A DNA stretch of 32,000 nucleotides from the NCBI GenBank assembly GCA_025937895.1, contig JAICQL010000028.1, forward strand, positions 1 to 32,000, in the 5' to 3' direction. Shown piece after piece: positions 8,842 through 27,898 of the stretch. The notes under the pieces were generated by a model. That model was not told the origin of the DNA. It made no database searches and worked only from the letters and a program-made list of their open reading frames with translations. Position 1 is the first letter of the stretch, and each line of letters starts with the position of its first letter. The position numbers and the translations under genes are program-made. The stretch is from Polyangiaceae bacterium (GTDB lineage Bacteria > Myxococcota_A > Polyangia > Polyangiales > Polyangiaceae).

Positions 8842-11286
8842 TCACTCAGCCAGCAGCGCTGCGAGCACGCCCGGCTCATTCCGTCGCAGCTCCACGACCG
8901 GCACCGCCAGACCCAGCCGGCGGAGCTCGGCGGCATTGCTGCCCGTGCTCGCATCCGGCGTGGGCGGCGCACTGAGCACCAGCACGTCGGGCGAGCGCCC
9001 CAGCGCTCGCAGCGCGTGCAGGGTGCTGGTGACGTCGTGCAAGACACCTAGCCGATCGGGAGCCACCAGCACCCAGCGGGCGTTGCCCAGCGCGCGAGCG
9101 AGCTCGAAGTTCGTCGTGCCGGCGCCCAGCGGGGAGAGGACTCCACCCGCCGTCTCTATCACCAGGGCTGGCAGCTCCGAGCTCTGACACCGCACTCGGT
9201 CCACCCAGGACGCGATGGCGTTCACATCGATCTCCTGTCCCTCGTGGTGCGCTGCCAGGGACGGGGCAATGGGCTCACGGAAGGCGTACAGCGGATGCGG
9301 CCGCGGGTGCTTCACCCGGGCGGAGGCCTGCTCCAGCAGCGCCGCGTCACCCCCGCACGGCTGCCCATCAGCGCTCGTCCCGCAACCCGTCTCGACCGGC
9401 TTCAGGCCCGCGACCGCGTGGCCCGACTCCGCCAGGATCCGGACCAGTGCGGCCGCGACATAGCTCTTGCCGACGCCGGTGCCAGTGCCCAGCACGATCC
9501 AGCGCTGCTGCGTGAACGAATCGTGGACGGTACGGGTGCGCGCGCCCAGCGCGAGCTGGGCTGGAGCGCTGGTGGAGGGAGGAGGCACCACCGAGGGCGA
9601 AGCGGCGCTGGCTGACGACGCAAGGTCGGGCTGCGCACGGACGCCGGACGGCGAGGCCACGTCGGGCGGCGAAGCGGCTGGCGGTGAAGCGAAGGAGGGG
9701 GCAAGGCCCGGCTGCGGTATTGAGGACGGCGAAGCGGAGACCGCCGAAGCGAGTGAGGGGGCGGCGAGTGGGGGCGCAGCGAGTGGGGGCGCAGCGCCGG
9801 GCAGCGTGCCGGCGGCTCCGGAGCGCTCGCTCGAGTCGGCAGGGTCGGCAGACTGCTCGCGCCAGGCGCTCAGCAGGGCAGAGCCCAGGAGCTCGAGCTC
9901 CGTATCTGTCATGTCCGCACGCAGAGAGATGCGCAGGCGCGAGCTGCCTCTTGGCACGGTTGGCGGGCGAATCGCCTGGGCTCGAACCCCGAGCTGCTCG
10001 AGCTGCGCCGCTGCCCGCAAGGTGGCGGCCTCGCTCCCGAACACCACGGGAAAGAGCGGCCCGTGCCTGCCGGCGGGCAAGGGGATACCGCTCGAAATCA
10101 GCTTACGCTCCAGCCGAGCAGCGAGCGCGCCCAGCCGCGTCCGGGCCCGGTCCGCGGTGCGCACCACCTGCAGATGCTCCTGCGCCCGCGCGCAGAGCCA
10201 CGGGCTGACCCCGGTGGAGAAGACAAAGCTCCGAGCACGGTTCCAGAGCCACTGCCGGTAACACCGCGCTCCGGCGACGAAGCCCCCCTGCAGTCCAAAG
10301 GCCTTGCCGAACCCACCCACCAGCAGGTCCGGCACCACCCCGACCGCTGCCGCCAGCCCCCGCCCCTCCGGACCAAAGACCCCCAGCCCGTGCGTCTCGT
10401 CGAGGATCAGCGCTGCCTGATGCTGGTTGCACAGCTCGCGCAACGCCGCGAAGTCCGGGCTCGTGCCATCCATGCTGAAGTAGCTCTCCGTCACCACCCA
10501 GCGCACCGTTCGCTCTGGGCGCGGACGAGCCAGGCCGACAGCGAGCGCATCCAGGTCCCGATGGGGAACCACCACCGTCTCCGCGCGGCTCAAGCGACAG
10601 CCGTCGATGATCGACGCGTGGTTCAGGGCATCCGAGAAGATCACATCGCTCGGCAAAGCCAGCGCGCTCAGAACCCCAACGTTCGCTGCATACGCGCTCG
10701 AGAACAGAAGGCTCGACTCCACCTCCAGCCAGGTCGCCAGCGCCGCCTCGAGCGCTTCGTGCTCGAGCGTCGTCCCTGACACCAGTCGCGAAGCGCCAGC
10801 TCCCAGCCGCTCCGCGCCCGCAACGTGTCCGCGCGTTTCACGTGAAACGCGTGGAACGAGCCCGCGCGTGGGCTCACGAGCTGCAGAGCCCTGGCCCACT
10901 TGACGCCACTCGCAGTGCGCCTCCCCGAGGCTTCCGTCACGCGGCTCCTGGTCCACCGTTGCGCCGGCTGTTTCACGTGAAACGTCGCCCCCGCGCGCCG
11001 ATTGCTCTTGGGCGCGCCCAGCGTCGCCGAGGCCTCGGCCAAACACCTCGCAAGCCAATCCCAGGTAGTCGTTCGACCGCGTGTCGAGCACGCTGCTCTG
11101 AGAGCCGCCAAAGTCCGTCCGGCCCTCCGCCGAGCGATAGAGCCCAGCGGCACGCAGCGCGTCTAGCAGCTCCACCAGCCGATCAGCAGCCCGCATCCCA
11201 CCCCGTGCATAGCGCATCAGCCCCTCCCCGGATACGGGCAGTGCCTGTCGAGCCAGCGGACGCGGCCCGCAGGTACCCGCAACCAT
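8842..11286 (-). CDS. bioF: fused 8-amino-7-oxononanoate synthase (BioF) / dethiobiotin synthetase (BioD), with a parS-bearing insertion in the BioF part
   Basis: BioF motifs NDYLGLA, GAGASRLVSGT, YFSMDG, GGFGKAFG and IRPPTVPRGSSRLR. A Pro/Ala/Ser linker of about 120 aa follows. Then the BioD P-loop WIVLGTGTGVGKSYV and a BioD-like body. The true start may be the Met at 11217. Confidence 0.85.
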   Translation of the reverse strand: MVAGTCGPRPLARQALPVSGEGLMRYARGGMRAADRLVELLDALRAAGLYRSAEGRTDFGGSQSSVLDTRSNDYLGLACEVFGRGLGDAGRAQEQSARGGDVSRETAGATVDQEPRDGSLGEAHCEWRQVGQGSAAREPTRGLVPRVSRETRGHVAGAERLGAGASRLVSGTTLEHEALEAALATWLEVESSLLFSSAYAANVGVLSALALPSDVIFSDALNHASIIDGCRLSRAETVVVPHRDLDALAVGLARPRPERTVRWVVTESYFSMDGTSPDFAALRELCNQHQAALILDETHGLGVFGPEGRGLAAAVGVVPDLLVGGFGKAFGLQGGFVAGARCYRQWLWNRARSFVFSTGVSPWLCARAQEHLQVVRTADRARTRLGALAARLERKLISSGIPLPAGRHGPLFPVVFGSEAATLRAAAQLEQLGVRAQAIRPPTVPRGSSRLRISLRADMTDTELELLGSALLSAWREQSADPADSSERSGAAGTLPGAAPPLAAPPLAAPSLASAVSASPSSIPQPGLAPSFASPPAASPPDVASPSGVRAQPDLASSASAASPSVVPPPSTSAPAQLALGARTRTVHDSFTQQRWIVLGTGTGVGKSYVAAALVRILAESGHAVAGLKPVETGCGTSADGQPCGGDAALLEQASARVKHPRPHPLYAFREPIAPSLAAHHEGQEIDVNAIASWVDRVRCQSSELPALVIETAGGVLSPLGAGTTNFELARALGNARWVLVAPDRLGVLHDVTSTLHALRALGRSPDVLVLSAPPTPDASTGSNAAELRRLGLAVPVVELRRNEPGVLAALLAE
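10834..10849. promoter_or_regulatory. parS: parS-like ParB-binding site 1 (inside bioF)
   Basis: CGTTTCACGTGAAACG has a perfect 14-bp core and matches TGTTTCACGTGAAACA at 14/16. It is part of a perfect 20-nt palindrome, 10832-10851. Confidence 0.8.
10969..10984. promoter_or_regulatory. parS: parS-like ParB-binding site 2 (inside bioF)
   Basis: TGTTTCACGTGAAACG, 15/16 to consensus. It lies 135 bp (45 codons) from site 1. Confidence 0.85.
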
Positions 11287-11611
11287 GCCCCGCCTCCATG
11301 AGCCGCGACCGCCAACCGGACTGCGCTCGCGCTCATGAGCCTGTCCAACGCCACGCCTGCGGCCAGACTGCCGCGTTCGAACCCGAAGCTGTCACTGGCC
11401 CGATCAAGTCCCTTGCCCGCTTCGCTCGCAGGCTGCGCTCAAACTTCGCGGCAAGGGACGTCGTCGTCTCGGCAGCGGGAGCGCGCCAACTCAGTCAAAG
11501 CTGCTGCCAGTGGGTGCGTCCACTGGATGCACCCGCGCCGCTAGCCAGCTTGCGCCCCCCGAGCGTGCCGCAGCCGGCGCAGGGCCTCCTCCGGGGGAGC
11601 GAGGTTGCGCC

Positions 11612-11627
11612 TGTTTCACGTGAAACT
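11612..11627. promoter_or_regulatory. parS: parS-like ParB-binding site 3
   Basis: TGTTTCACGTGAAACT, 15/16 to consensus. Confidence 0.85.
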
Positions 11628-12904
11628 CGGACCCTGTGCCGCAGCCTCGGCTCAGGCAGCCTGCCGCCGGCACCCAGAGCTTCCGATACGCAACCAGAGC
11701 AGGTCTCCGATGGCGGATCCCCTCCCTGGCCCGTCTCCATTGCGACCGCCAGGGCCACCCGCCTGCTTCCCTTAGCTGCGACCGCTCGCTGCATGCACAC
11801 CGGCCTTCTGCCGGCATTGAGGCGCTCCCGCGCCAAACGGTGAGCGCGCTCAACTCAGCTGCTAGCCCGTGGCCACGCACCGTCCAGCTCCAATGTCCCC
11901 CCAGCGTCAGGCCCGCTGAACCCATCAAGAGAGGCTTGCGGGCGCGGGCCTCGCACCACGCCTCGTTACCCCGCACGGCGCAAGGGGGCCAGCCGCGCAT
12001 CGCCTTCCCGCCGTCACGTGCCTTGCCCCACCTTCTCCCGTGGTCGCGCGAGACCCCGCGGACGGCCATAGAGTGTATAGGGGTCTCGAGTGGCGACCCG
12101 AAAGTGTGAGCCCCCGCCCGGTTCGTTCCCCGCTGAGACGCCGCGGCCTCCCACGCGGCCGTGCCGCGACGAATGGCAGCCCTGCCGGCGCCTGCCTTCG
12201 CACCGCCTCGTCTGAGCACCGACTGATAGACCCGCGCGCTGCCGGGAGGCCGCTCACGTTCCTTCGATTGGTCGCGTCACAGTCCTCTGCCTCACACGCC
12301 TTGGTTTCTCGTGCTTGACCTACCGCTGGCACGAGGACGAGCGAGCTCAGCAGCCGCTGTGCGCGAGCCTGCAGGCAATGGCAAGCGCCTCGTCCCCGGC
12401 CGCGCTCGAGACGGCAAAATGCGACGCCCGGGACCGCGCGGTGCTGCTGGGGTTGCACGTGCCGCCACGGAGCGGAGCGGGGCGGGGCCGGCTCCCCGAA
12501 CCGAGCGCGGCCCCCTCTGCATCGCCTGGCCTCCGCCCTGAGTCCGGAGCCCTGCGCTGGCGGCCGGGCGCACTAGGCCCACTGGGCTGGGCGAGCGCGA
12601 AGGCTCCGCTCGGCCGCGGGAGAGCGGAGCGCCGCCGGAGGAAACCTTCCCAGCGCAGCCCGGGTTCGCCCCGGCGAGTATTCGGTCTCGCTCGCGCGGG
12701 CGTAAGCCTAAGTGCCGACCGCCACCCGACCGTCGCTGCTGCGCGGGGCGCACCTGCGCCTCCTCACCTTTGGAACGCAAACAATTCGGCCCGCGCTCCT
12801 CATACTCGCTTCAATCAGGCCGCGTGCTGTCTCCACGGGTGCAATGGCCCGCGAAGAGCGCCGAGGCGGGTGCTGCTGCTGCCGAGAGCGGGGCGCGCTG
12901 TCTT

Positions 12905-12920
12905 CGTTTCACGTGAAACA
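12905..12920. promoter_or_regulatory. parS: parS-like ParB-binding site 4
   Basis: CGTTTCACGTGAAACA, 15/16 to consensus. Confidence 0.85.
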
Positions 12921-13153
12921 CTCGGCGCGGCTGCGACTGCGTCGAGCGATCGCGGCGCCAGGTGCGACGCAGACGTATGCGCGGCAGCTGGTCTCCGCGC
13001 GGCGTCACCATCTGGATGGTTAGCGCCAGGCGAGCGCGACGGTCACGGGACGGAACGCGCCGAGCCTATCAATGGCCAATGGCCGAGCCGCCGCCGCCGG
13101 TGCTCGCGGATGTTCGGCGCTCGAACTGGCTCGGGCATTCACTGGGGGGGCCT

Positions 13154-13169
13154 CGTTTCACGTGAAACG
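13154..13169. promoter_or_regulatory. parS: parS-like ParB-binding site 5 (satellite unit)
   Basis: CGTTTCACGTGAAACG, perfect 14-bp core. Confidence 0.8.
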
Positions 13170-13294
13170 GACAAACCTGAGAGGTCCGCAGAAGACGCTC
13201 CTCGAGCCCATCAATGGCCAACGGCGGAGGCGCCGCCGCCAGTGCTCGCGACGTTCGGCGCGCAACCCGCCTCCGGCATTAGCGGGCGACCGCT

Positions 13295-13310
13295 CGTTTC
13301 ACGTGAAGCG
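13295..13310. promoter_or_regulatory. parS: parS-like site 6 (satellite unit, one core mismatch)
   Basis: CGTTTCACGTGAAGCG. Confidence 0.6.
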
Positions 13311-13439
13311 CACCAGCCGGAGACTCCCGCAGGAGGCGCTCTCCGGTCCTTGTCAACGGCCAATGGCCGAGCCCCCGAGGCCTCGGTGCCCGCGGCCGTT
13401 CGGCGCACAAGCCGGCTCGGCCATCACCAGGCGTCTGCT

Positions 13440-13455
13440 CGCTTCACGTGAAACG
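13440..13455. promoter_or_regulatory. parS: parS-like site 7 (satellite unit, one core mismatch)
   Basis: CGCTTCACGTGAAACG. Confidence 0.6.
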
Positions 13456-13587
13456 CGCCAGCCTGAGAGGCGCGCAGAAGGCGTTCCTCGGTCCTGTCAA
13501 CGGCAGTGGCCGAGCCCGCCGAGGCCCCGGTGCTCGCGGATGTTCGGCGCGCAAAACCGGCTCGGGCATTGGGGGGGCGGGGCCGTT

Positions 13588-13603
13588 CGTTTCACGTGAA
13601 ACG
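13588..13603. promoter_or_regulatory. parS: parS-like ParB-binding site 8 (satellite unit)
   Basis: CGTTTCACGTGAAACG, perfect 14-bp core. Confidence 0.8.
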
Positions 13604-13731
13604 GACCAGCCTGAGAGTTCCGCAGGAGGCGCTCTCCGGTCCTGTCAACGGCAACGGCCGAGCCGCCGAGGCCCGGCGCTCGCGAATGTTGGGCGCGCAA
13701 ACGTGCTCGGGCATTAGCGGGAGGGACGGTT

Positions 13732-13747
13732 CTTTTCACGTGAAACC
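13732..13747. promoter_or_regulatory. parS: parS-like site 9 (satellite unit, one core mismatch)
   Basis: CTTTTCACGTGAAACC. Confidence 0.55.
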
Positions 13748-13872
13748 GACCAGCCTGAGAGTCCCACAAGAGGCGCTCCCCGGTCCTGTCGACGGCCAAT
13801 GGGCTAGACGCCGAGGGCCGTGCTCGCGGCTGTTCGCGCTCACCGGGCTCACGCATTACCGGGTCACCCGCT

Positions 13873-13888
13873 CGGTTCCCGTGAAACG
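13873..13888. promoter_or_regulatory. degenerate parS-like site 10 (last, decayed satellite unit)
   Basis: CGGTTCCCGTGAAACG. The right half-site is intact; the left half has two core mismatches. Confidence 0.35.
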
Positions 13889-14913
13889 CACGAGCCCGAG
13901 AGTCGCTCCCCCTAACGCGGGGCCTCCAACCATCGACAGCCACGGTCGACATGAACTTTGCATCCGCTGCCTCACACGAGTCGCGGACACTGCGACAGCG
14001 TCAAGGCGTCCTCATTTGGGAGCTCACTCAACGGAACCTGCCACCCCATCCGAGACAAGCTTGCTACGCCTCGGCGGGGCTCACTGAGGCTGCCACCCCC
14101 ATCCTCGTCCTCCTCCCGCGAGTGGCTCCCCACATCGTCAGCCCGCCCGAGGGTGCGGCGGCAGCCGCCTCGCTTCCTTCGGACCTGTGCCGTGAGGCCC
14201 GTAGTGCGCTCTCGCTCTGCCTCAGCTTCGTCTCCCCCTCGTCGATGCTCCGGAGCGTGCAGCCGCTGCGGCACGCGAGCACCCACCCTCGTCGCGGCGC
14301 TCCGCGCCGGCTATCGTTGGTTGCCACCCGCGAGCGGCTAGCTCTCGAGAGAGCCGGTCGGCGCCCGCTGGAGCCGACCCGAGCAGAGCGCGCGGCGCCC
14401 GCGCCGAATCGACTTCTCCCCGTGGCAGCGCCGTGCGGCTGGACGGGGACACGCTGGAGCCGCACGCCTGCCGGCCGCACTCGCTCCAGGCGTGAGAGAA
14501 TGCCATCGTCAGGAAAGGAACGACGTACCCCCGGAAGTAGCGGAGCGGGGAGATGACCCAGACTAACCCGCGGGACAACGGTGACGGCAGCGTCCCGCGG
14601 AAGCCCGGCTTCCCGCGGCCATGGCTTCGGTGCGGCTCTGGCCACGGCTCCGACCCCGACGTCGCCTCGAAGCTCGGCACGGCCGCGCCGTCCGATGTCC
14701 GGCCCCCTGCCCACCGAGGTACCCTTCTTGGCCATGCAGCCCTTCGCCCAGCACCGTCCGAGAACCCGCTCCAACAAGGTCGCTTCGACGCCCAGCGACC
14801 CTCGCCGGAACTGGCTTCAACCAGCCGGAGCCAAGAAGGCTTTGATCCGAACCCGCGCCCTCATCTTCCGGCGCCCTGTCCGCCGTGCGCAGCAGCCGCC
14901 AATAGACGCTGAT

Positions 14914-14929
14914 GGTTTCACGTGGAACA
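14914..14929. promoter_or_regulatory. parS: parS-like site 11 (isolated)
   Basis: GGTTTCACGTGGAACA, 14/16 to consensus with one core mismatch. Confidence 0.6.
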
Positions 14930-14999
14930 ACCAGTAAGCCGCTGGGGCACGCAACCCCAGAGCTCGGCGTTCACCCTCTTACACGCGCACTCCCGGCCC

Positions 15000-15800
15000 G
15001 CCTGTCTGCGGACCTCGCCCGGTACTGGTGGGGGCCACGAACCTAAGCGTCGAATGCCGAGTCGCTGCGGTCCCACCGTCCTGGCGCGCACGAGAGCTGC
15101 TCGCGCGGACCCCTCCCGGCTCCAGAGTTCGTGGGAGCCTGAACAGCCTCCCTCCGGCTGCTAGAAGCCGAGTCACTGCCTGGACGCTGCTCCGGCGGGT
15201 CTGCCCGCGTCGGACCTCGCTGGATACTAGCGAGTCTTCCGGCACCTGAAGCCCGAGTCACCGCCCAAGCGGTCTCACCGGGCGTGGCGGCGGTACACGA
15301 GAGCCGTCACACCAAGCCATCGCCCGCCGCCGGACCTCGCTGCCTACCGAACAGCTGACGAGGCCGTGTCTTCCGGCACCAGAGGCCAAGTCGCTGCCCC
15401 GCAGGCCTCGCCGCCAGGGCCAGCGCCGCGAGCCGCTCGTTCGGCTCCTTCCGAGCGGGCCTCGATTACGGGACAGGCCGCGAGCCCTCACCGGAGCCAT
15501 TCGGCGCCCAAGCGGTCCACCGCCGCGGCCCGACGTTACGGGAGGAGATCACCGACCAATCCTGGCGGCGGCCTCGTTGAGTGCTCCACGGGTCGGAGTC
15601 CTTCCGACCACCTGCAAGGGCGATTCGCTGCCGAGCGGTCTACCGCAGTCGTCGCGTGAACGGTGCCACTCGCCCATGAGCAAGCGACGTGCGGACCGCG
15701 CGGCGTCTCCACCGCACACTTGGCGGTGAGCGGGTGACGACGAGGGAGGCCCGCCGGCGCCCAGATGGTCTGCTTCCGGCACCATCCTCGGCCCGCGTTG
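15000..15800. repeat. second, degenerate direct-repeat family (no parS)
   Basis: CGGACCTCGC occurs at 15009, 15211 and 15331. GTCTTCCGGCACC occurs at 15234 and 15368, with GCTTCCGGCACC at 15772. GCCGAGTCRCTGCC-like blocks occur at 15056, 15167, 15251 and 15384. Spacing is roughly 110-135 bp. Confidence 0.5.
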
Positions 15801-16813: not shown

Positions 16814-17140
16814 TCAGCCGGCGGGGGCAGCGGGCAACGGGTCGCCGTTTTCGTCGACTCCGTCGAGCGCTTCGTTCACTCGCTCGAGCAGCTGGCGCAA
16901 CATGGCCTCAGCGCCGTCCAGATCCGCGCGGCGCTGGGCGCGCTCCTGCTCCAGGTCGTGGGCGAGCGCCATCGCGACGAGCAACATCGCCTGCGGGTGC
17001 GACGTGCGATCGGTGCCCGTCAGCGCGCGCAGGCGCTCGTTCACCACGCCGGCGTAGCGCTGCAGCGTCTGCTCGCCGGAGGAGGCGACCAGGCGATACG
17101 ACTGGCCCCCTACACTCACTTCCACGGCGGGGCGCATCAT
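16814..17140 (-). CDS. zapA: cell division protein ZapA
   Basis: From the internal Met: MMRPAVEVSVGGQSYRLVASSGEQTLQRYAGVVNERLRAL...LLVAMALAHDLEQER. Length (~108 aa) and pattern match ZapA. The upstream part of the tracked ORF is Arg-rich junk. Confidence 0.8.
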   Translation of the reverse strand: MMRPAVEVSVGGQSYRLVASSGEQTLQRYAGVVNERLRALTGTDRTSHPQAMLLVAMALAHDLEQERAQRRADLDGAEAMLRQLLERVNEALDGVDENGDPLPAAPAG

Positions 17141-17213
17141 CGCGGCACGGTACCATTCGCCACGCGCAAGGGGAAAGCGCGCTGCGCCCCGGTTCGGAAA
17201 ACAGCCATGCGGC

Positions 17214-17942
17214 CTACAGGCCGCCGCGGCAAACCTCTTGGCTGGTCGCGCACAGGCGGCAGTCGACGTACGCGTCCTGTCCGGCGCTGCACGGGATCTC
17301 CGCCGGCTCCTGGTCGAAGCGGGCACACTCGCCGTTGGCGTTCAGCGCCTCCGACGGGAAGGACACCAGGCAGCCGCGGCACACCTTCACGACGTAGCGG
17401 ATGTTCGCTGATTCGACGTCCACTCCGCCCACCGTCTTGCCGAAGACGCTGACCTCGGCGACGCGGGTCACGGTCTGCCCCGGCTGCAGGCTGTCGCGCA
17501 GCTCTGCGCCAGCAGTCTGCGGAATGAGCGTGGCGTTGATCACGCCGTAACCGGCAGACGCCGATTCATCCGGCAGGATCGTGCCCGAGGCGGGCACCGT
17601 GAACTCCAGCACCTGCGCGCCCTCGTCATCGAACAGGTGCACCTCCGCGCCTTCGATGACGGTGATCATCGTCTCGGTGCGCAGGTTTTCCTTGTCGCCG
17701 CGCGGCGTGAGCTGGCTGCCCACCAGCAAGCTCGCGTCGTAGTCGAGCTTCAGGCCCACATCGAGCACGCCATACCCGAGCAAGGTCGCCGACTCCTCGG
17801 CGGTCACCGTGCAGTCCGGGGGGACACGCGCGGCGTTGCCCTGAATGAACAAGCCCGTCTGCTCGTCGGTGCAACTAGCGCCCGCCCAGAGCAAGAGCGA
17901 GCCGATCAGGCAGCTCCAGCGCCTTCCCAGAAGATCTTTCAT
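17214..17942 (-). CDS. putative secreted lipoprotein (hypothetical)
   Basis: Internal Met gives MKDLLGRRWSCLIGSLLLWAGASC, a signal peptide with lipobox GASC. The mature part has a beta-rich, Cys-containing, non-shadow composition. Confidence 0.6.
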   Translation of the reverse strand: MKDLLGRRWSCLIGSLLLWAGASCTDEQTGLFIQGNAARVPPDCTVTAEESATLLGYGVLDVGLKLDYDASLLVGSQLTPRGDKENLRTETMITVIEGAEVHLFDDEGAQVLEFTVPASGTILPDESASAGYGVINATLIPQTAGAELRDSLQPGQTVTRVAEVSVFGKTVGGVDVESANIRYVVKVCRGCLVSFPSEALNANGECARFDQEPAEIPCSAGQDAYVDCRLCATSQEVCRGGL

Positions 17943-26655: not shown

Positions 26656-27705
26656 TCAGTTGGGGCCGAGATTGTACACGAGCGCGAGCATGGCCACGCC
26701 CCAGGAGAACACGATGGCCACGAAAGGCCCGTCGCGGAGCATCTCCTGCGTGGGGCTCTCCGACTTCGGCCGGGTGCGAACCAGCACCATGAAGCGCCAC
26801 AGTGCCACCGCCACGAACACGCTGGTCCACCACAGGTGCCGCGAGTTGAAGAAGTCCATGGTCTCCGGATCCAGCGTGTACGCCACGTAGCTGGCCACCG
26901 TCAGCACCGCGGTGGTGCGATGGCTCCAGCGCAGCCCGTGCCGCGTGTAACCCCCGAGCGCCTTGCGCTGCTGCTGCGCCATGCCACGCGCCGCCGTGCT
27001 CAGCTCGTGCCGGCGCTTGCCCAGGCCCAGGAACAGTGCCAGCAGCGCCGTGCACAGCGCCAGGTAGGTCGACACCTCGGTGTGGGTGGCAAAGCCGCCT
27101 GCCAGAACGCGCAGCACGAAGCCCGCCGCGATCGCCGCCACGTCCAGGTAGGCGACCTGCTTCAGCCGGAACGAATAGGCCACGTTGAGCAGAAAATAGC
27201 TCAGTGCCGTGACCAGGAACTCCCACGGACCGATGGCGGCCCCGGCCAGGCTGACCAGCACCAGCGCGACCACGGCCGTGCGCGCCCAGCCGATCGGCAC
27301 GCGGCCCGAGGGGATGGGCCGATAGCGCTTGATGGGATGGGTCGCATCGTTGTCGATGTCGACCAGATCGTTCATCGTGTACACGGCGCCGGTCAGCAGA
27401 CAGAACACGCCGAACGCGCCGATCGAGCGCACCAGCAGATCCGTGATGAACATCTCGCGCGCGAACACCACCGGCGCCAGGACGAAGACGTTCTTCACCC
27501 ACTGGTGCGGGCGCATGGTGAGCAACAAGCCGCCCAGCCGCCAGACCACCAGCCTGAGCCCCTGGCTGGGGGGCGGCGGCGGCGACAGGTTGACCGAATC
27601 CGTCGACGGCGACGGATCGGAGTCGAGCCCGCTGGACTGCGATGGTGGCTCACTGTCGTCCGCACGCATGCCGTTGCCGTGCTGGATGCTCGCCGTCTGA
27701 ACCAT
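26656..27705 (-). CDS. UbiA-family decaprenyl-phosphate phosphoribosyltransferase-like enzyme
   Basis: RPHQWVKNVFVLAPVVFA and NDLVDIDNDATHPIKRYRPIPSG (NDxxDxxxD plus the KR.RPI block typical of DPPR synthases). Multiple TM helices. 12-nt gap to the CPBP gene, so probably one operon. Confidence 0.85.
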   Translation of the reverse strand: MVQTASIQHGNGMRADDSEPPSQSSGLDSDPSPSTDSVNLSPPPPPSQGLRLVVWRLGGLLLTMRPHQWVKNVFVLAPVVFAREMFITDLLVRSIGAFGVFCLLTGAVYTMNDLVDIDNDATHPIKRYRPIPSGRVPIGWARTAVVALVLVSLAGAAIGPWEFLVTALSYFLLNVAYSFRLKQVAYLDVAAIAAGFVLRVLAGGFATHTEVSTYLALCTALLALFLGLGKRRHELSTAARGMAQQQRKALGGYTRHGLRWSHRTTAVLTVASYVAYTLDPETMDFFNSRHLWWTSVFVAVALWRFMVLVRTRPKSESPTQEMLRDGPFVAIVFSWGVAMLALVYNLGPN

Positions 27706-27764: not shown

Positions 27765-27839
27765 TTGCCGCGCGACCTCGTTGCCGCGCGGCCTCGTTGC
27801 CCTGACGTGGTTGCCCCGACGTGGTTGCCCGCGACGTGG
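27765..27839. repeat. five tandem TTGCC-initiated short repeats in a divergent promoter region
   Basis: TTGCCGCGCGACCTCG (27765-27780), TTGCCGCGCGGCCTCG (27781-27796), TTGCCCTGACGTGG (27797-27810), TTGCCCCGACGTGG (27811-27824) and TTGCCCGCGACGTGG (27825-27839). A degenerate TTGGCGCGAGACGT follows. Confidence 0.75.
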
Positions 27840-27898
27840 TTGGCGCGAGACGTTCCGGCTTGACGTCCCGCGGGGCCCCGGGGCATCCGAAGACTGCC

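Follow-up and report, generated by a model that had tools for sequence, protein, structure and literature searches.

In-frame parS sites in a loop of BioF: a predicted ParB loading element conserved within the bioF-bioD gene of a Polyangiaceae bacterium and its relatives

The DNA analyzed here, referred to throughout as the window, is a stretch of 32,000 nucleotides from a Polyangiaceae bacterium (contig JAICQL010000028.1, positions 1 to 32,000). Its minus strand carries a bioF-bioD fusion gene, and the part of that gene coding for a loop in the BioF half contains two copies of parS, the 16-bp palindrome bound by the partition protein ParB. We consider it probable that a predicted ParB loading site has become locked in this tolerant loop, where parS copies multiply in frame. 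The gene was assigned from Pfam matches within open reading frame (ORF) 8842–11286 (PF00155 at amino acids 158–467, E = 6e-46; PF13500 at amino acids 597–784, E = 1e-20) and from its best sequence matches in the PDB, the BioF enzymes 7s5m, 3wy7, and 1bs0 (E down to 5e-62). The frame of 814 codons is uninterrupted. In the public annotation of the contig the start is placed at M24 (nt 11217), giving a protein of 791 amino acids with which the database homologue P0001 is 100% identical. BioF-BioD fusions are common in the clade to which this protein belongs. The BioF and BioD halves are joined by a low-complexity linker containing a 15-bp tandem repeat (AGCGAGTGGGGGCGC, 3.3 copies, 9748–9796) that codes for repeated peptides of the PPLAA type.

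The loop is bounded by two recognizable motifs, NDYLGL on the N-terminal side and the glycine-rich GAGASR on the C-terminal side (Table 1). In pairwise alignments with 7s5m and 3wy7, query NDYLGL 72–77 corresponds to chain positions 66–71 and query GAGASR 162 to chain position 90. The gap between the two motifs is 84 residues in the window's BioF versus 18 in solved BioF structures, and it is mostly 17–19 residues in a metagenome outgroup and 13–18 in most clade members; in other BioF proteins, a helix of 18–19 residues occupies the stretch. A preliminary description of the window had remarked that this interval was overlong, which holds: we count 84 residues (83 in the earlier count) compared with 13–19 in other BioF proteins. 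It had also reported two parS sites in frame, each translated as VSRET and 45 codons apart, and both are present at 10834–10849 (proximal) and 10969–10984 (distal), 135 bp apart and read in the minus-strand frame of the gene. Each has a perfect 14-nt core, the consensus core here being GTTTCACGTGAAAC. Compared with the full 16-bp palindrome tGTTtCACGTGAAACa, the proximal site has two mismatches, in the outer bases only, and the distal site has one. Because a TGA codon falls in one of the palindrome's reading frames, whichever strand is used, an intragenic parS can be translated only as VSRET or as FHVK. In the BioF loop, VSRET is spelled GTT TCA CGT GAA ACN, and its variant VSREM is spelled GTT TCA CGT GAA ATG.

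Relatives were collected by homologue search; all come from metagenome-assembled genomes and are either BioF or BioF-BioD proteins. Of about 200 BioF relatives, approximately 175 carry VSRET at the proximal position. The pooled tally contains 166 proteins with one VSRET, two with two (the window protein and P0005), and seven further proteins in which VSRET stands beside an atypical GxGxSR glycine motif. Nine single-residue variants were also tallied (VSRAT four times, VARET twice, and VPRET, VSRGT, and FSRET once each), and VSREA (P0038) and VSREM (P0178) were found separately from this pool. A second search, seeded with the distant member P0095, added 101 cluster representatives, of which 93 have VSRET. 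The median architecture across the clade is NDYLGL, four residues, VSRET, seven residues, GxGxSR, and a typical loop of ordinary length reads NDYLGLARRAVSRETVGGSQVGAGASR. VSRET is the only conserved element of this loop, and the residues around it are unconstrained. Twenty-one clade members lack VSRET and keep the enzyme; in a neighbor-joining tree, 18 of these form one block near the base, and the other three are isolated losses.

BioF proteins from outside the clade, drawn from those metagenome-scan loci that showed both motifs and from 50%-identity representatives beyond approximately rank 60, have an ordinary amphipathic helix at this position (e.g., DHPRVREAAAEAAMRYG), mostly 17–19 residues long and without parS. 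Nearly all of the 80 metagenome loci listed were non-clade BioF and served as the outgroup. A scan of genome contigs with patterns specific to the window protein matched only distant alphaproteobacterial BioF. The best explanation of the clade's sequences between NDYLGL and GAGASR is that the usual helix was lost and gave way to a short, variable linker. The proximal parS of the window lies 10 residues ahead of GAGASR, within the normal range for the clade, and the sequence comparisons indicate that this site is ancestral and was not inserted. The earlier suggestion that the two sites arrived together as a repeat pair does not fit this distribution, because proximal VSRET is already present in short-loop relatives (the 166 single-VSRET homologues). 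Orthologues commonly have a short segment with parS, rather than a segment of comparable length without it.

The site is conserved as DNA. We examined the DNA of relatives at loci L027, L028, L029, L110, L112, L113, L114, L115, L117, and then L120, which have 58–71% guanine plus cytosine (GC) and BioF proteins approximately 47–69% identical to that of the window. VSRE was spelled GTTTCACGTGAA at 13 of 13 loop sites in 10 genomes (two of them belong to the window and 11 to relatives, and one of the relatives' sites is VSREM). For the proximal, ancestral parS in particular, the DNA was exact at each of the nine relatives' loci checked. These codons are rare in the window's genes (usage of GTT, 0.039; TCA, 0.036; CGT, 0.073; GAA, 0.072), and their joint codon-usage probability is approximately 7e-6 per site. 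Most of the peptide variants (VPRET, VARET, VSRGT, and VSRAT) trace back to positions 5 and 12 of the 16-mer, the two at which the Myxococcus xanthus consensus TGTTCCACGTGGAACG also departs from that of the window. By these counts, the bioF parS sequence is conserved at the DNA level beyond coding need, and the best explanation is that constraint acts on the DNA, with the VSRET pentapeptide as a by-product. Dual DNA and protein constraint on the parS codons, raised as an option in the preliminary description, is borne out. Were VSRET instead a protein-level motif of this BioF clade, with its match to parS incidental, it might well be the sole conserved element of the loop, as it is. That explanation is extremely improbable given that none of the 13 sites departs from the four rare codons, that the flanking residues are unconstrained, that VSRET can be duplicated two or three times within disordered loops, and that 21 clade members keep the enzyme without it.

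The distance from NDYLGL to the proximal VSRET is 69 residues in the window versus a clade median of four, a net gain of approximately 65 codons. The preliminary description had placed both parS sites inside an insertion of some 60–70 codons; the extra codons are real and include the distal parS, but the proximal parS stands at its ancestral position. The loop has no internal tandem-duplication signature in comparisons of the spacer with the flanks of either parS (z from -0.8 to 0.8). Because the inter-parS spacer is unlike the sequence flanking both sites, no tandem duplication is recognizable in the window, and an old, diverged duplication may be the source of the distal parS.

Expansion of the loop is not confined to the window. 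The four closest relatives are expanded at the identical point (15 residues in P0003, 38 in P0002, 137 in P0004, and 74 in P0005), and these expansions differ in length and are unrelated in sequence. P0005, encoded at L117, has an architecture like that of the window: approximately 27 amino acids, DVSRET, 42 amino acids, PRVSRET. Its locus has two exact loop parS sites 141 bp apart (L117:6489–6645) in addition to a site in the BioD half and two upstream sites. The spacers of the window and L117 align only marginally (z = 1.75, p = 0.06), and the neighbor-joining tree places the short-loop proteins P0006 and P0010 beside P0005. At L115 (10189–10336), VSREM and VSRET lie 132 bp apart and are the only parS in 21 kb. 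L120 (5926–6274) has three exact cores at spacings of 138 and 195 bp and no other parS on its 16-kb contig; the gene neighborhood differs there, with UDG upstream and HigB downstream, and no tandem-duplication signal was found between the inter-parS spacers and flanks. Among the 50%-identity representatives, loops reach 389 residues with two or three VSRET. Because L115, L120, and these representatives are independent cases, the window is best read as one instance of a recurrent growth of parS arrays in frame. The expansion described earlier is thus genuine, but its recurrence across the clade, with multi-parS loops, had been missed.

Further multi-parS loop proteins are P0247, P0248, P0253, P0254, P0258, and P0283. 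A fixed in-loop spacing of approximately 135–145 bp, considered from the values of 135, 141, 132, and 138 bp, was rejected because other representatives range from 45 to 789 bp.

The predicted enzyme is intact around this loop. The catalytic Lys305 (the pyridoxal phosphate [PLP]-lysine column, P0001 numbering) and more than 40 other clade-invariant columns are all retained. An AlphaFold2 model built on a 68-sequence alignment has a mean predicted local distance difference test score (pLDDT) of 85 and a predicted template modeling score of 0.82. Block-mean pLDDT is mostly >95 in the enzyme body; across the loop (residues 55–138 of the model) the 10-residue block means are 37–57, and they are <50 for residues 79–124. 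The top Foldseek match of the model is the BioF structure 7s5m (template modeling [TM] score 0.87). A low-confidence loop on a confident BioF fold bears out the surface-loop option of the preliminary description: the insert is, as modeled, a tolerated and predicted-disordered surface loop, and it can be regarded as a tolerated surface excursion because the enzyme body is intact. GC at codon positions 1, 2, and 3 is 0.88/0.62/0.74 in the loop without its parS codons and 0.75/0.58/0.80 in the rest of the gene. GC is lowest at the second position not only in the window loop but also elsewhere in the gene and in four relatives' loops, and a satellite repeat upstream of the gene (see below) is flat at 0.69/0.66/0.71.

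The other option in that description was a decaying bioF, a pseudogene whose frame stays open by chance in GC-rich DNA. Long spurious ORFs are indeed common in this window of 70% GC, and the parS in the BioD half has degenerated. Neither a frame interruption nor a loss of conserved residues, the marks of a pseudogene, was found in the window's bioF-bioD, however, and the PLP-lysine column, the confidently modeled body with its BioF fold, and the low second-position GC of the loop, like that of the rest of the gene, all speak against decay. So do the expanded loops of several independent lineages whose enzymes are otherwise conserved. We regard decay as very unlikely; from its sequence and model, bioF-bioD is not decaying and is predicted to encode a functional enzyme.

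A second in-frame parS occurs in the BioD half of the clade's fusion proteins. The peptide SFHVKHPxPHPLY, in which parS is read as FHVK, is present in 37 of 60 fusion homologues, and intact sites were found as DNA (TTTCACGTGAAA) at L112:2392 and L117:7910. The window retains only a degenerate relic (Table 1). The sequences indicate that the BioF site uses the VSRET frame and the conserved BioD site uses the FHVK frame. The preliminary description had seen the BioF pair but not this clade-conserved BioD site.

Table 1. Coordinates of the bioF-bioD gene, its loop, and the parS-related features of the window
Feature	Position	Strand	Details
bioF-bioD fusion gene (predicted)	8842–11286	-	814-amino-acid ORF; Pfam and PDB matches and AlphaFold2 model
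Degenerate BioD-half parS relic	9304–9324	-	SARVKHP (GCCCGGGTGAAG) versus clade SFHVKHP
GAGASR glycine-rich motif, C-terminal loop anchor	10786–10803	-	Amino acids 162–167
Variable BioF loop	10804–11055	-	Amino acids 78–161, 84 residues
Proximal parS CGTTTCACGTGAAACG	10834–10849	.	VSRET, amino acids 147–151; ancestral position
Lineage-specific expansion including distal parS	10849–11052	-	Amino acids 79–146; approximately 65 codons above clade norm
Distal, extra parS TGTTTCACGTGAAACG	10969–10984	.	VSRET, amino acids 102–106
NDYLGL motif, N-terminal loop anchor	11056–11073	-	Amino acids 72–77
parS cluster upstream of bioF	11612–14929	.	Starts at 11612, 12905, 13154, 13295, 13440, 13588, 13732, 13873 (weak), 14914
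145-bp tandem satellite	13065–13904	.	5.9 copies, one parS per unit

Within 4.1 kb (10834–14929) lie 10–11 parS-like sites, and the bioF pair comes first. Ten matches to the 16-mer with up to three mismatches were found in the window, compared with none expected from 100 dinucleotide-preserving shuffles. Five or six of the sites belong to a 145-bp tandem satellite with a period of 141–148 bp, and each satellite unit has conserved flanking blocks (e.g., GTGCTCGCGGATGTTCGGCGCGCAA and TCAACGGCCAATGGCCGAG). The outlying parS variant GGTTTCACGTGGAACA at 14914–14929 is of the GTGGAAC type of the M. xanthus consensus and matches the VSRGT peptide variant of P0039. The stretch of approximately 4 kb on the upstream side of bioF (11287–15500) holds many long ORFs in which parS is translated as FHVK or VSRET. 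The parS-containing ORFs between bioF and zapA have no Pfam match, and the two that were tested are unlike the upstream ORFs called in relatives; judged from sequence, they are probably not genes but artifacts of ORF calling in centromere DNA that is GC-rich and non-coding.

This satellite offers another source for the bioF sites, namely that a parS-bearing repeat pair derived from it entered bioF as one unit, by insertion or by spread. The 135-bp spacing of the bioF sites is close to the satellite period, the satellite is just 2 kb from bioF, and weak inverted matches link 11013–11041 to satellite blocks (70%–72% over approximately 30 nt). Nevertheless, when the 119-nt bioF spacer was aligned with the set of five satellite spacers, globally and locally and in either orientation, the scores did not exceed those of dinucleotide shuffles (z = 0.6, -1.5, 0.1, and -0.4), and the block similarity that the preliminary description had made out by eye does not survive this comparison. 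The satellite units aligned with each other give scores of 59–135. A profile of six satellite units, run in nhmmer with filters off, found nothing in bioF beyond the parS core and a few bases next to it. The satellite unit was not found in the ten relatives' loci, so it is lineage-specific; because the proximal parS is conserved clade-wide, it predates the satellite. By these alignments the bioF insert is unrelated to the 145-bp satellite beyond the parS core, and a satellite origin is very improbable.

The window and its relatives share a conserved gene order, which runs from a response regulator through a dehydroquinate (DHQ) synthase, in places a shikimate kinase-DHQ synthase, zapA (16814–17326 in the window), and a spacer with parS to bioF-bioD, followed by genes for an AhpC-like protein, a PP-loop ATPase, ddl, and a HEAT-methyltransferase. 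No origin marker was found in the window. At L118, whose BioF lacks VSRET, bioF is followed 1.3 kb downstream by a single perfect 16/16 parS (TGTTTCACGTGAAACA, L118:12450–12465), and dnaN-recF-gyrB lies 4–10 kb from bioF; because those genes are within 10 kb of bioF, the locus is near the replication origin in at least the L118 lineage. Elsewhere in the window, a 14-bp tandem repeat (TTGCCCGCGACGTGG, approximately five copies) occupies 27765–27848, just past the start of a UbiA-family gene (26656–27705, minus strand).

The palindrome might instead be the operator of another DNA-binding protein, such as a regulator of the biotin operon, or an mRNA hairpin, and not a ParB site. It does lie inside a biotin gene, the bioF copies are the only ones in 16–21 kb at L110, L113, L115, and L120, and no parAB was seen nearby. 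On the other side, the sequence is the universal parS consensus, and the array of 10–11 copies, partly organized as a satellite, resembles the ParB-bound cluster of M. xanthus. The L118 lineage, without a bioF site, yet keeps its perfect parS 1.3 kb away, near dnaN-recF-gyrB. The biotin operators bioO, BioR, and BioQ are not known to share the sequence of the parS palindrome. Taken together, this alternative is very improbable.

We therefore return to the reading in which a predicted ParB loading site is locked in a tolerant BioF loop. The window probably spans a cluster of chromosomal parS (centromere) sites from a Polyangiaceae-like myxobacterium, and bioF-bioD lies at the edge of this cluster. 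A parS of universal consensus sits in frame within a structurally permissive linker, is held there by selection on DNA, and has been duplicated repeatedly within loop expansions. In the window, the linker has grown by approximately 65 predicted-disordered, unconstrained codons just N-terminal to the ancestral parS, and the added stretch holds a second perfect parS core. ParB would nucleate and load at the bioF sites, as it does at parS generally and at the M. xanthus cluster in vitro (PMC3899335). Extra copies might be kept because more parS improves ParB loading or strengthens the partition complex; they would arise by local duplication, and in a loop free of constraint the spacers could then diverge until their kinship is no longer visible. 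A biosynthetic gene that is transcribed only weakly would be a quiet harbor for parS, and bioF may be favored for that reason.

Several points weigh against this account. The relatives are all metagenome assemblies whose taxon names are NCBI labels only (Polyangiaceae or Deltaproteobacteria bacterium), and for most homologues parS was deduced from the peptide alone. No parA or parB was found among the ORFs scanned in the 32-kb window. In-loop parS spacing across the clade varies from 45 to 789 bp with no single duplication unit apparent, and the spacer of the bioF insert has no detectable kin among its own flanks or in the satellite, nor, convincingly, in the L117 insert. Finally, the selective value of extra parS copies is something we infer.

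A broader version can be offered only tentatively. The clade's centromere could be anchored in the bioF frame, with selection on parS copy number driving loop growth (up to three in-frame copies and loops of up to approximately 390 residues) and, in some lineages, with the whole local array inside the BioF coding sequence. If true, the clade would show clearly, in nature, how a cis-acting element for chromosome maintenance can shape the length and sequence of a protein.

The clade-wide pattern is more interesting than the single insertion in the window. Intragenic parS sites are usually treated as incidental, whereas the bioF site is held in one loop of a housekeeping enzyme despite divergence to approximately 50% identity. 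It would provide a natural dual-coding system in which DNA-binding constraint can be measured against protein tolerance: synonymous recoding removes parS and leaves the protein unchanged, and deletion of the loop removes both. The system also speaks to two further questions, namely by what route parS arrays grow and how a gene that hosts ParB clamps can still be transcribed and translated. VSRET in BioF, or FHVK in BioD, could serve as an annotation marker of the partition locus in uncultured Polyangia-type genomes, and the case carries a caution for motif finding, in that a conserved peptide motif may be the shadow of a DNA element.

In the literature searched, we found no description of parS conserved in bioF, of a VSRET or FHVK signature, or of loops carrying in-frame parS arrays; no paper joined parS, ParB, and bioF, and nothing was found on parS in Sorangium or Polyangia. 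Intragenic parS and dense myxobacterial parS arrays are already known, and within that literature a conserved bioF parS with in-frame multiplication appears to be new.

Three known systems offer comparisons. The solved BioF enzymes 7s5m, 3wy7, and 1bs0 share the fold (TM score 0.87), motifs, and PLP-lysine column of the window enzyme, but in the latter the helix that follows NDYLGL is replaced by a variable, parS-bearing linker, 84 residues long and mostly predicted to be disordered. M. xanthus has 22 parS in approximately 3 kb (22–24 sites), located approximately 4 kb upstream of parA, and ParB binds this cluster in vitro (Iniesta, 2014; PMC3899335). Like the window, it is a dense myxobacterial parS array, and its mean spacing of approximately 145 bp is comparable with the window's 145-bp satellite. 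It differs in lying upstream of parAB, whereas the window has no parAB and its array runs into the bioF coding sequence, and the two consensus sequences disagree at positions 5 and 12 (GTTTCACGTGAAAC in the window versus GTTCCACGTGGAAC in M. xanthus). Intragenic parS have precedents in Bacillus subtilis, where the first parS lies inside spo0J, and in Pseudomonas aeruginosa. In P. aeruginosa PAO1, nine of 10 parS are in coding sequences (PMC4368675). As in bioF, a 16-bp ParB palindrome lies within a translated ORF in these species, and the DNA motif and the protein share bases. Unlike those sites, the bioF parS is fixed in one enzyme loop across approximately 175 protein clusters that are only approximately 50% identical, leaves a pentapeptide signature, multiplies in frame to two or three copies, and in some lineages provides the only parS within 16–21 kb.

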